From an uncultured Clostridia bacterium (GTDB taxonomy: Bacteria; Bacillota; Clostridia; Christensenellales; UBA1242): a DNA stretch of 64,000 nt. Position numbers and translations under genes: made by a program. The notes beneath the pieces were generated by a model, which was given only the letters and a program-made list of their open reading frames with translations, was not told the origin of the DNA and did no database searches. The DNA lies in the NCBI GenBank assembly GCA_934754375.1, contig CAKVHT010000001.1:152532-216531 (forward strand), written 5' to 3'. Numbering within the stretch: position 1 is the stretch's first letter; every line of letters begins with the position of its first letter. Below, one piece after another: positions 55,462-58,098 of this stretch.

Positions 55462-58098
55462 ATGACTAAAATATTTGAAGCGGTTGATAAATTCTTTTCA
55501 TCATTCGCCAATTATTTGAATTACAATCGTTATTTTATCATATTTGCTGCGTTGTTCTTATTCACAGTTCTCTGTGTAATATTTTCAACCTCTCGTTCTT
55601 ACGAAGCAAGGTTGATTAAAGCTGTTGACATGTTCAACAACTATTTTTTGGACAATCCACAAATCACTGAAGATAATCTGATTGCATTCAACAATAAAAT
55701 GAAATCAGGCCGTGTGCCAAAACAATTGCGCAAGCAATGGCAACAATATGTTTTGTATAGGGAAGAAAAGGCAAGTAAATATATGTCTTTTGACAGTTGC
55801 GTAACTATACCTGTAAAAAACAGTACTTACACTCGTGATGTCAAAATCATGAATATGTTATCATACATATTTGCGGGTTTATGCTTTTTGTTGAACTTAT
55901 ATTGTTCTTATGAAGAAAAGTTGGTGGAAATTTTGCAACACTGCTTGCTTTGCCCAATCTTGATTTTGATGCTAAATTATCTTGTTACTATTTTCTTCCA
56001 AATCAGGCATAATGCAATCATAAGTGACCTTTATTCAAACTACCAATACTTTGAAGTGAATATTGATAAAGCAACTGAAACTTTGCCAGATTATGTTGAC
56101 TATGAAGTATTGTTTGATAAAAACGAAATCAAACGTGGTATTCCAATTTTGTACGCATACCTTCAAAAACGTGCTGATGAAGAAAAGAAAGAGTTGGAAC
56201 GTGCTCGTTTGCGTAACGTAGAACATGAAAAATTCAATTTTGATGAGGCTGGTGTAGAACGTTCACTTGTTTTGGAACGTGCTATGACAGAAGCTGAAAA
56301 CTATATTGCTGAACGTAAAAAACTTATGCAAGACATGGAACAAATTAACAATGAAATTTATCAAGAAGAAAATGCGTTCCGTGAAACAACAAAAGAATAT
56401 CAACGTCAAATGCAGGTCAGCAAAGAGACATTTGATAACTTTAAACAACAATTGGAAGATGTTACATCAAGTATTGAAGCAAACTATCTGAAAAAGCAAC
56501 AACAACAAGAACTTGACCGTCAACGTAACTTGGAACGTGATTACGATACCGCTACTGATCGTCACAAAAAAGTTTTGGAAACATACCAAGCAGAACTTAC
56601 TGATGTTGAAAATCAAATCAAAAAGGCACGCAACTCTCTTGAAAAGTCAATGATGAGCGAATTTGATACATATAGTGGCAAAGTCTATGACGAAGCACTT
56701 CGTGTTGTTGAAGAACGTGAAGCTGATAAATATACAAAAGTTCAAGACAATATAAAGTCTTTGGAAGAAAAATTGCAACACAAAGAAGCAGAAGTTAATG
56801 GCTTGTATGATGAAAATGCTCAACTTAAAGACCAACTTTCAAACATTGATGCCGAGTATCAACAAAAGATTGATGAACGTGAACAAATCATTTCTCGTGT
56901 TTCAGATGAAGTAAATCGTGCAAAAAACAGCAAAGTTTCAGCACAACAAACAGAACAGCCGGTTGAACAACCTGCTCAAGAGCAACAATACTATGATCAA
57001 CAATATGCTGATAATCAGTATGTAGACAATTCATATTATGATAATCAAAATGATAGCCAAAATGATAATCAACAATATGATGACTATTATCAACAACCTA
57101 GCGAACAACCAGCAGAGACTGCACAGGTTGAAACACAATTGCAACCAGAAAATCAATCAACAGCTCAACCTAAACAACAAGATACTTACACATTCAACAA
57201 TCTTGACCAGCAAGGTCAATCTGAATCGTCAAATCAAGAGCAACCAACATACACATTTAACTATCTTGATGAACCAGAAGATGACGATGCAAACAAGGTA
57301 AAACCTGAACTTGAACCAGAACAAAAACAAAATCAAGAACAGACACCAGCAACTTCGGGGGAAAATGCTGATGAACAAGTTTCAACAGAAACAACTGAAC
57401 AAGTTGTGCCAGTTGAATCAGAATCCACTGTTCAAACGGAAGAAAGCAAACCAAAAGGCAAACCAGGCAGGCCACGCAAAATTGTTACAGAACCAGTTGT
57501 AAAAAAGAAACCAGGCCGTCCACGTAAAGTTGTTCCAACTGAAACAGTTACAACCGAGCAACCAAAACGTAAAGCGGGCAGACCTCGCAAACAACCTGTT
57601 GAACAAGAAGTTGTTGAACAACCAAAGCGCAAGGCAGGCCGTCCACGCAAAGTAGTTGAAAATGCTGTGGCAGAACAACCTAAAAAATCAGTTGGCAGAC
57701 CAAGAAAGGTTGTTGAAGAAAAACAAGACAATGTAGCTGAACAACCAAAACGTAAAGCGGGCAGACCTAAAAAAGTTGTGACAGATATTGAAACAAAGCC
57801 AGCAGGCAAGCCGGGCAGACCTCGCAAACAGCCTGTTGAACAACCAACAGAAGAACAACCAAAACGCAAAGCAGGCCGTCCACGTAAAGAGCCAGTTGCA
57901 AACGTTGCAGAAACTCAGCCAAAACGTAAAGCGGGCAGACCAAAGAAAGTGGAAACTTTAGCAACAAATCCTGCTGAAATAACTGATATTGACGAGTTCT
58001 TAAAACAAATTGATAACGAAATCGCAAAAGAAAATGCAAAACTTGAAGCATCAAAAAAAGAACTTGAAAAAAATTCAAAGTTGAAGAAAAACAACTAA
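55462..58098 (+). CDS. Membrane-anchored coiled-coil protein with C-terminal array of nine AT-hook motifs
   Basis: SD aaagggg precedes ATG 55462. There are about 4 N-terminal TMs, a ~300-aa heptad-like E/K/Q region and a Q/N/Y-rich segment. These are followed by 9 copies of (K/R)xxGRP(R/K)K. Confidence 0.75.
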   Translation: MTKIFEAVDKFFSSFANYLNYNRYFIIFAALFLFTVLCVIFSTSRSYEARLIKAVDMFNNYFLDNPQITEDNLIAFNNKMKSGRVPKQLRKQWQQYVLYREEKASKYMSFDSCVTIPVKNSTYTRDVKIMNMLSYIFAGLCFLLNLYCSYEEKLVEILQHCLLCPILILMLNYLVTIFFQIRHNAIISDLYSNYQYFEVNIDKATETLPDYVDYEVLFDKNEIKRGIPILYAYLQKRADEEKKELERARLRNVEHEKFNFDEAGVERSLVLERAMTEAENYIAERKKLMQDMEQINNEIYQEENAFRETTKEYQRQMQVSKETFDNFKQQLEDVTSSIEANYLKKQQQQELDRQRNLERDYDTATDRHKKVLETYQAELTDVENQIKKARNSLEKSMMSEFDTYSGKVYDEALRVVEEREADKYTKVQDNIKSLEEKLQHKEAEVNGLYDENAQLKDQLSNIDAEYQQKIDEREQIISRVSDEVNRAKNSKVSAQQTEQPVEQPAQEQQYYDQQYADNQYVDNSYYDNQNDSQNDNQQYDDYYQQPSEQPAETAQVETQLQPENQSTAQPKQQDTYTFNNLDQQGQSESSNQEQPTYTFNYLDEPEDDDANKVKPELEPEQKQNQEQTPATSGENADEQVSTETTEQVVPVESESTVQTEESKPKGKPGRPRKIVTEPVVKKKPGRPRKVVPTETVTTEQPKRKAGRPRKQPVEQEVVEQPKRKAGRPRKVVENAVAEQPKKSVGRPRKVVEEKQDNVAEQPKRKAGRPKKVVTDIETKPAGKPGRPRKQPVEQPTEEQPKRKAGRPRKEPVANVAETQPKRKAGRPKKVETLATNPAEITDIDEFLKQIDNEIAKENAKLEASKKELEKNSKLKKNN
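57451..57948 (+). repeat. Degenerate in-frame tandem repeats encoding the AT-hook array
   Basis: Recurrent gaacaaccaaaacg(t/c)aaagc(g/a)ggc(ag/cg)(a/t)cc(t/a)cg(c/t)aaa units. The peptides are PKRKAGRPRK (x3), PKRKAGRPKK (x2), PKGKPGRPRK, KKKPGRPRK, KKSVGRPRK and AGKPGRPRK. Confidence 0.85.

Follow-up and report, generated by a model that had tools for sequence, protein, structure and literature searches.

The gene described here was read in a 64,000-nucleotide (nt) stretch of DNA, hereafter the window (positions 152,532 to 216,531 of contig CAKVHT010000001.1, GenBank assembly GCA_934754375.1), from an uncultured Clostridia bacterium. It is located at 55462-58098 on the forward (+) strand and encodes a protein of 878 amino acids (aa) that is laid out as three transmembrane (TM) helices, a helical stalk, an acidic linker rich in Q, N and Y, nine AT-hooks and a terminal helix. 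Onthoplasma belongs to GTDB family UBA1242 (Christensenellales), to which the host is assigned, and its genomes are mostly smaller than 1 Mb (PMC12306168). The features of the gene and of its flanking signals were as follows (coordinates, strand, feature, basis of the assignment):

55405-55415 (+): extended -10 element TGTGTTATAAT; exact match in the window.
55450-55456 (+): ribosome-binding site AAAGGGG; read from the sequence, with AAGGGG kept before the ATG in related loci.
55462-58098 (+): coding sequence, 878 aa plus stop codon; list of open reading frames (ORFs) and translation.
55465-55593 (+): N-terminal amphipathic helix (aa 2-18) and TM1 (aa 21-44); AlphaFold helices H2-18 and H21-44, hydropathy; N-terminus predicted outside.
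55594-55845 (+): K/R-rich helical domain between TM1 and TM2 (aa 45-128), predicted cytoplasmic; charge counts, conservation, predicted local distance difference test (pLDDT) 92-97.
55846-56001 (+): TM2-TM3 hairpin (aa 129-148 and 159-180) with a short, nearly uncharged outer loop; hydropathy.
56002-56949 (+): conserved juxtamembrane subdomain and helical stalk (aa 181-496); AlphaFold helices, invariant residues.
56950-57441 (+): acidic linker rich in Q/N/Y/D/E, presumably disordered (aa 497-660); composition, unalignable among homologues.
57442-57966 (+): array of nine AT-hooks (aa 661-835), net charge +32; motif reading, Pfam, composition.
57967-58095 (+): C-terminal heptad helix with a lysine-rich tip (aa 836-878; 43 aa); conservation.
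58102-58129 (no strand assigned): terminator hairpin in the gap between two convergent genes; 12-bp stem bordered by A and T runs, with U-runs on either side.

Two in-frame starts are available for the ORF that stops at 58098 (+): GTG 55396, which gene callers use and which lies upstream of the -10 box, and ATG 55462. The GTG was discarded because the extended -10 box sits downstream of it. A TGTTATAAT -10 box was found 42-110 nt 5' of the ATG in 37/37 Onthoplasma-clade loci and, wherever the upstream bases were printed, the box of the related loci reads TGTGTTATAAT. An earlier reading of the same DNA (the original prediction) had started the protein at ATG 55462; the positions of the ribosome-binding site and the -10 box confirmed it and, by these signals, the ATG is the true start and the ORF is real. 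Of the other segments in that prediction, the Q/N/Y-rich stretch, the acidic spacer and the closing heptad helix were likewise all found. Its count of about four hydrophobic helices was corrected to three TM segments (approximately aa 24-43, 129-148 and 159-180 by hydropathy) and an N-terminal amphipathic helix. The linker has a net charge of about -32 (aa 500-660).

Homologues were collected with a word-indexed search (379 homologues; the best 120 full length, 48-74% identity) and with an exhaustive profile search using the N-terminal 450 aa (244 clusters at 50% identity, 158 of them at E < 1e-30). Family-wide counts were made on 75 representatives, with identities down to 24%, and on a subset of 56 full-length members (set A4).

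The nine GRP(R/K)K motifs counted in the original prediction were recovered at aa 669, 685, 706, 726, 745, 767, 785, 805 and 825, 16-22 aa apart; the form PKRKAGRP(R/K)K occurs in five of the nine. From the composition of the protein, approximately 0.05 GRP would be expected. The Pfam AT_hook model (PF02178) scored 23.4 bits on the whole protein (cut-off 17.4) and matched 17/56 family members (best 1.7e-10). The motif had been called a canonical AT-hook core: this stands in so far as the Pfam score is above threshold, and fails in that Arg is absent before the Gly in 9/9 hooks, the residue there being A (five), P (three) or V (one). Among 1,270 hooks of homologues, Arg precedes GRP in 58% and [KR]K follows it in about 99%, with a median spacing of 20 aa between hooks. 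Each of the best 120/379 homologues carries 4-11 GRP motifs together with three hydrophobic segments, and a 95%-identical strain has the same nine hooks with all cores intact, its spacers having diverged and one containing a 6-aa insertion or deletion; the repeats are therefore kept in orthologues. A recent tandem duplication was considered and rejected: Tandem Repeats Finder shows no array at the DNA level there, the hooks are therefore old, and what preserves them acts at the protein level. The array is conserved as an array, without conservation position by position.

At greater distances the tails differ in kind. At least three hooks were counted in 26/75 representatives, including the closest and the most distant members. 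A further 24/75 are hook-free, yet contain a stretch with a net charge of at least +10 per 50 aa and are rich in K, A, P and T; for two of these 24 basic tails, Pfam returns the histone H1-like family HC2 at 3e-10. In 66/75 representatives the most acidic block comes before the most basic one. Judged by sequence comparison, AT-hooks are exchangeable with other basic tails across the family, and this pattern is the strongest indirect argument that low-specificity DNA binding is the conserved property. The occurrence of hooks or of other basic tails at the same position provides a natural test of selection for generic DNA affinity.

The side of the membrane on which the hooks lie was assessed from charges averaged over the 75 representatives. 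The N-terminal tail has a mean of 1.7 K+R vs 3.0 D+E, the 85-aa TM1-TM2 loop a mean K+R of 14.7 (15 K/R in 85 aa in the window protein) and the TM2-TM3 loop a mean K+R of 0.15, and basic residues begin immediately after TM3. By the positive-inside rule, this distribution points to an N-out, C-in protein and would therefore place the stalk and the hooks in the cytoplasm, as the original prediction supposed. The charge-based topology agrees with the analogy to the ZorA/TolQ/ExbB fold described below, which has the same N-out/C-in layout. The description of the gene product as an integral membrane protein with a multi-AT-hook tail was accordingly retained.

The same data bear on an alternative in which the basic tail does not act on the chromosome, but faces outwards and binds extracellular DNA or wall polyanions, or else binds RNA or forms charge-driven condensates at the membrane. 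The low complexity of the tail, its alternating acidic and basic blocks, the Q/N/Y-rich segment, the hooks without the first Arg of RGRP and a nearby gene for a lipoteichoic acid (LTA)-synthase-like sulfatase would all suit such a function. We nevertheless regard it as very improbable: the charge bias puts loop 1 and the C-terminus inside, translocation is unlikely for a highly charged segment of approximately 700 aa without an export signal, and the GRP[KR]K core is far stricter than generic charge requires.

Pfam gave AT_hook as the only match on the window protein, NCBIfam gave nothing and no family model was found; together with PDB sequence searches, in which the window protein had no relative, these results ruled out membership of a known family. 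By the same searches the family is undescribed and uncharacterised, and defining it would annotate several hundred proteins now called 'hypothetical'. Most full-length matches listed cover the whole 450-aa module, and of the full-length members (at least 560 aa) the shortest has 562 aa and the longest 1405 aa. When one genome per species was scanned, 52 loci were obtained, one of them 95% identical to the window and all from uncultured gut Clostridia (Candidatus Onthoplasma, Christensenella sp., Clostridia bacterium); every named match belongs to uncultured gut Clostridia, and the more distant relatives are metagenomic sequences. Genomes of the lineage with the gene measure 0.67-1.6 Mb; the GC content here is approximately 32%. 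No homologue was found in the phage and plasmid collections searched, and a mobile or phage origin was ruled out on that ground. With 52 species-level genomes, a housekeeping-type promoter and no phage or plasmid homologue, the gene behaves, on comparative evidence, as a core gene; its survival in genomes of approximately 0.8 Mb suggests that the protein is not dispensable.

Conservation is unevenly distributed along the protein. N-terminal residues 1-450 are the most conserved part (76% mean column identity in 14 homologues), and many invariant charged residues occur all through the 'coiled coil' of this module. The region that had been described as heptad-like is indeed helical and has a heptad-periodic part, but at this level of identity it is no generic spacer. 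Seven residues are invariant in 75/75 representatives (P86, W93, R100, P209, F218, L230 and F260) and E48 is conserved in 74/75; E322 is invariant in set A4 only. In the TM1-TM2 domain, E48, N59, N72, K81, P86, W93, Q94, R100, S105, Y107, P117 and S121 are invariant or near-invariant family-wide. Conserved positions fall nearly all in the cytoplasmic loop or just after TM3. Within the membrane P165 alone is near-invariant (72/75), S/T occurs at position 134 in 43/75 and at position 141 in 43/75, and the TM helices contain no invariant Thr or Ser. The acidic linker could not be aligned among homologues. In the terminal helix D844, I854 and A855 are invariant and D842, L847, I850, E857, A859 and L868 near-invariant, and many distant members likewise end in a short helix followed by KKK. 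Compared with the 95%-identical strain, the window protein is 99.6% identical over the N-terminal module; the figure falls to 88.6% for the linker and 90% for the hook region, and the terminal helix shows no difference (100%). The strain and family patterns therefore indicate purifying selection on the N-terminal module, the hook cores and the tip, relaxed on the spacers.

The position of the gene in distant relatives offers a further clue. In 6/6 distant relatives (24-39% identity), addB-addA lies directly upstream on the same strand, with a gap of 62-181 bp, and the genes downstream vary by locus. This placement suggests a role in chromosome maintenance or DNA-end handling, not gene-specific regulation. 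It has also led us to consider a membrane scaffold for double-strand-break processing, which would hold broken or replicating DNA and work with the AddAB helicase-nuclease. That all six members stay directly downstream of addB-addA while the genes further downstream differ favours such a partnership. We think it unlikely, as neither the 52 scan loci (L004-L055) nor the window has an addA or addB gene within 10 kb, and as the gene has its own conserved promoter element (TGTGTTATACTAA just upstream of the gene in 3/6 distant loci, ATGTTATACTAA in a fourth), with a terminator-like hairpin after addA in one distant locus; the gene order could be merely inherited. A LexA-type box was looked for upstream of the AT-hook gene and none was found, and SOS regulation was rejected. 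In L056 and L058-L062 (approximately 1100-7940), addB is preceded by a conserved gene whose product has a Myb/RsfA-like N-terminus and contains the motif LFMGLVRLVK; the RsfA-like label rests on motif resemblance by eye.

We read the protein, a member of an undescribed family with predicted DNA binding, as a tether that faces the cytoplasm and links the nucleoid to the membrane, and assign this reading a probability of about 0.5. The N-terminal module would oligomerise in the membrane and project the helical stalk into the cytoplasm. The acidic linker of approximately 165 aa would act as a flexible spacer and may also dampen the hooks electrostatically, as is thought for the acidic segments of HMGA and CarD. 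Each of the nine hooks would contribute weak contacts to the minor groove of AT-tracts, of which a genome of 32% GC has many, and as a result of these weak, multiple contacts DNA would be kept near the membrane without sequence specificity. The terminal helix would bundle the tails of neighbouring subunits or dock a partner. The N-terminal module probably does more than anchor, because it is the most conserved part and has a predicted ZorA/TolQ/ExbB-like fold.

Several points weigh against a DNA tether. All nine hooks of the window protein are without the first Arg of the RGR core (RGRP) that enters the minor groove, and the tails are merely weakly basic in 25/75 representatives. Basic, proline-rich repeats are also able to bind RNA or anionic polymers. 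The predicted topology derives from charge bias and a fold analogy. The link to addBA, which the closer loci lack, is conserved synteny and not a proven operon, because of the promoter-like element of the gene itself and the hairpin after addA.

To our knowledge, the positioning and segregation of small AT-rich Clostridia genomes are poorly understood, and the AT-hook membrane protein is a candidate genome anchor in these bacteria. An integral membrane protein with its own multivalent hook array would be a simple physical link between envelope and nucleoid.

The predicted fold of the N-terminal module was analysed with AlphaFold2 (residues 1-450), which gave all-helical models with a pLDDT of 76.7 (14 aligned sequences) and 90.0 (75 aligned sequences). 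In the stalk region the helices are H154-207, H228-252, H265-333 and H337-449 (mean pLDDT 90). Within the stalk (56254-56808, aa 265-449), family-averaged hydrophobicity passes from a clean heptad period of 3.50 (aa 265-333) to a hendecad-like period of 3.66 (aa 337-449). In Foldseek searches of the PDB, ZorA of the Zorya anti-phage system ranked first for both models. Four E. coli ZorAB entries had E-values of 2e-3 to 8e-3, a probability of 1.00 and target TM-scores of 0.42-0.54 over 273-289 aligned columns, the top ZorA matches lying at E 4e-3 to 7e-3 with target TM-scores of 0.48-0.54; Shewanella ZorA, TolQ and ExbB came next, and the E-values are marginal. ZorA crosses the membrane with three TM helices; a cytoplasmic domain close to the membrane separates TM1 from TM2, and the tail, which starts at residue 223, is a 70-nm bundle of helices (PMC11946911). 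The layout of the window protein is almost superimposable on that of ZorA in residue numbering, and a proline occupies the outer end of TM3 in each case (P165 here, P163 in ZorA, P169 in TolQ). The model thus has the predicted topology and fold of a stator protein: an outer N-terminus, TM1, a cytoplasmic domain, a TM2-TM3 hairpin and cytoplasmic C-terminal helices. At the level of the fold, the similarity to ZorA is robust but marginal, and a simple three-helix fold could be convergent.

Sequence methods did not reproduce this similarity. Pfam MotA_ExbB had no match even at E <= 10 in the 56 full-length members or in 10 isolated membrane domains. The PADLOC ZorA models matched 15/56 full-length members and none of the isolated membrane domains; because the latter gave none, the matches were attributed to coiled-coil composition, like those to LmuB and JetC, and membership of ZorA by sequence (PADLOC ZorA3) was rejected. 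A profile search of PDB sequences returned no ZorA, TolQ or ExbB. With hhalign, comparisons with E. coli TolQ and ExbB were not significant (P = 0.02-0.14), and the best local alignment puts TM2-TM3 on TM2-TM3 of TolQ/ExbB. The only sequence-level match of the membrane domain to a known family was DUF2207_C (PF20990), which was weak and partial: it matched 4/10 isolated membrane domains (best E 4.2e-5) and, in one member with coordinates (E 4.1), spans the stretch before TM2 through TM2-TM3. A PspA/ESCRT-III-like stalk was also considered and set aside: the matches were generic helical hairpins at E > 1, and PspA_IM30 is not among the 25 most-matched Pfam families listed.

The fold raises the question of whether the protein could serve as the ZorA-like subunit in a 5:2 membrane motor or sensor driven by ions, in which five copies surround a small partner with a membrane Asp, ion flow turns or shifts the long helical tail, and the hooks couple its movement, or a signal, to DNA. 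The first rank of ZorA for two independent AlphaFold models, followed by its Shewanella homologue, TolQ and ExbB, fits this scheme, as do the match in layout (N-out, three TM helices, a TM1-TM2 domain, a tight hairpin and a tail after TM3), the near-invariant P165, the semi-conserved S/T at 134 and 141 in TM2, and the period of 3.66 at aa 337-449, which is expected for a bundle that is not left-handed, like the ZorA tail. The motor is unlikely all the same, given the negative MotA_ExbB, PDB profile and hhalign results and the compositional nature of the PADLOC matches. Reading 11 neighbourhoods brought up no MotB/ZorB/TolR/ExbD-like gene (single-pass, with a membrane Asp), and none of the window's single-pass ORFs is a candidate for such a 'B' subunit. 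Conservation is concentrated in the cytoplasmic parts and not in the TM helices, and a three-helix bundle with long helices is simple enough to have arisen by convergence. More specifically, and decidedly doubtful, the protein may be a ZorA relative without ZorB, or with a cryptic partner: a membrane-embedded pentamer, possibly ion-powered, whose helical tail ends in approximately 45 hooks (5 x 9) with a direct grip on the chromosome, and which acts on bulk DNA. If that were true, a core gene of sub-megabase genomes, beside AddAB, would be the housekeeping forerunner or a side branch of a machine that has been seen in phage defence only. If the ZorA-like fold reflects real ancestry, the roles of long-tailed stator-type membrane complexes would come to include chromosome biology beside motility, transport and phage defence.

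The original prediction had proposed asymmetric division or engulfment as one occasion for tethering. As a sporulation device, the protein would anchor the chromosome to the membrane or the pole at that stage, standing in for RacA. Sporulation genes have been reported in the Onthoplasma lineage, as an unexpected finding in view of its reduced genomes (PMC12306168). The window itself contains a SpoVT homologue at 24180-24716 (-) with an AbrB-like N-terminus and SpoVT_C, which by its domains is direct evidence that the lineage keeps sporulation regulators; because of the reported genes and this homologue, the label of spore-former was reasonable. A YabP gene beside one distant relative and the RsfA-like genes (so named by eye) beside several point the same way. 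The promoter does not: in 37/37 loci it is a consensus extended -10, and it looks housekeeping-type, with no recognisable sporulation promoter. No sporulation gene was a consistent neighbour, and no search found sequence or fold similarity to RacA, SpoIIIE or DivIVA. A dedicated sporulation role is therefore highly doubtful. Of the original interpretation, membrane anchoring, cytoplasmic orientation and hook conservation hold, and the sporulation context is the part that the promoter does not bear out.

The non-coding spacer that contains this promoter (55004-55461, 458 bp, between divergent genes) is long for a genome reported as approximately 91% coding. An Rfam scan of the spacer matched no RNA family, and the conserved extended -10 box near its 3' end is the sole feature recognised in it. 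At the other end, the hairpin at 58102-58129 is, as read from its stem and flanking runs, the element that closes the transcription unit of the AT-hook gene.

The neighbouring genes were assigned as follows:

54281-55003 (-): Zn_peptidase_2 membrane metallopeptidase, divergent upstream neighbour; Pfam E 5.7e-75.
58173-58358 (-): DUF1858 small protein, the most persistent neighbour; Pfam E 8.5e-19.
58388-59302 (-): divergent SPFH-like (Band_7_1) protein, zinc ribbon at its C-terminus, recurrent neighbour; Pfam Band_7_1 E 1.5e-3, the match covering almost all of the domain, plus zinc ribbons.

In the Onthoplasma clade and in relatives down to 49% identity, the gene order is Zn_peptidase_2 (-), AT-hook gene (+), DUF1858 (-) and zinc-ribbon protein (-). 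The LTA-synthase-like sulfatase (+) comes next in the window (L001) and in L065; L066 ends at the AT-hook gene, and L002 and L003 are without DUF1858 and have different downstream genes. Zn_peptidase_2 holds the same position in L001-L003, L065 and L066 (proteins down to 49% identical). DUF1858 stands beside the gene in 43/52 scan loci, in the distant loci L056 and L059, and in L065. The SPFH-like zinc-ribbon protein matched the Band_7_1 and zinc-ribbon protein of L056 by BLASTP (E 7e-8), and, the window and L001 apart, tblastn located its gene in 17 of the related loci fetched. Two of the six distant loci keep both the Band_7_1 plus zinc-ribbon gene and the DUF1858 gene nearby. The DUF1858 (Cys-containing) and SPFH-like neighbours persist at 36-39% identity, in differing orientation (window 58173-59302 (-); L056 11004-12594; L059 10943-12644; L065 10433-11384). 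From this co-occurrence, the AT-hook gene, the DUF1858 gene and the SPFH-like gene may form a functional trio.

Elsewhere in the window, the following was observed. A giant ORF at 41666-52573 (+) encodes 3635 aa, has no Pfam domain except a borderline GLUG motif, and makes up approximately 1.3% of a genome of roughly 0.8-0.9 Mb. Ca. Onthoplasma faecigallinarum (L002) has a counterpart of 3657 aa at the corresponding position, and in L065 an ORF of 6113 aa lies near the AT-hook gene. The segment 13785-24116 contains conjugation or type IV secretion-like genes within this reduced genome, with a VirD4/TraG coupling protein at 13785-15824 (-) and a VirB4/TraG P-loop ATPase at 21375-24116 (+). Of the large ORFs between them, 19061-21331 has no Pfam match and 17193-18731 matched Pox_ser-thr_kin only (E 7.7e-5; 22.3 bits vs a cut-off of 19.7). 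At 25742-29494 (+) lies a gene for a 1250-aa protein with DUF5722 (E 4e-76), followed by a calcineurin-like phosphoesterase at 29494-31137.

The protein was finally compared with known systems that share parts of its design. In structure, the predicted N-terminal module comes closest to ZorA, a member of the MotA/ExbB/TolQ superfamily (PDB 8qyd and related entries); the two have in common three TM helices, an N-out/C-in orientation, a TM1-TM2 cytoplasmic domain and a tail of hundreds of helical residues after TM3. In Zorya this tail leads to DNA-binding, DNA-degrading effectors, whereas here the predicted DNA-binding element is fused to the tail itself, and the stalk is broken into several helices where ZorA has one continuous bundle; sequence and profile similarity are undetectable. 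Unlike a Zorya locus, the gene has no ZorB, ZorC/D or effector genes nearby and is not in a defence island; its core-genome synteny is conserved across species, its promoter is of the housekeeping type and it has no phage or plasmid homologues. DUF2207_C differs in that it is a predicted membrane domain without stalk or AT-hooks.

For the tail, PMC4374960 describes Myxococcus xanthus CarD as having an acidic segment followed by four RGRP hooks and, citing Garcia-Heras 2009, reports H1-like and HMGA-like tails to be functionally equivalent in CarD. The window protein likewise has a presumably disordered tail in which an acidic segment (about -32) precedes the hook repeats (+32), and its relatives likewise have histone H1-like basic repeats in place of hooks. 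CarD is, however, a soluble regulator that binds RNA polymerase through CarD_TRCF, whereas the present protein is a membrane protein with nine hooks that are without the first Arg. CarD_TRCF had no Pfam match in the AT-hook protein or in family members, in a search shown to work by its detection of the domain in the Mfd protein of the same window. The eukaryotic HMGA1/2 proteins likewise carry several hooks per chain, each a GRP core with Lys/Arg on its flanks, separated by flexible spacers, and have an acidic segment in the chain as well. They differ in being small, soluble nuclear proteins whose three hooks have the RGRP core; the present protein has nine hooks on a membrane-anchored stalk.

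Noc, RacA-DivIVA and SpoIIIE/FtsK link membrane and DNA in Firmicutes and share with the candidate tether the proposed outcome, chromosomal DNA at the membrane; no search found a sequence or fold relation to any of them. Noc consists of a ParB-type fold with an amphipathic helix, RacA combines a helix-turn-helix with DivIVA, and SpoIIIE is an ATPase pump. These proteins bind specific sites or translocate DNA, whereas AT-hooks are of low specificity. The closest analogue in overall design is MFP1 (with PEND, plastid nucleoid anchors), which comes from an unrelated eukaryotic lineage and uses other DNA-binding regions. MFP1 is anchored in the membrane, has a long coiled coil and binds DNA with one end; it attaches plastid nucleoids to thylakoid membranes.

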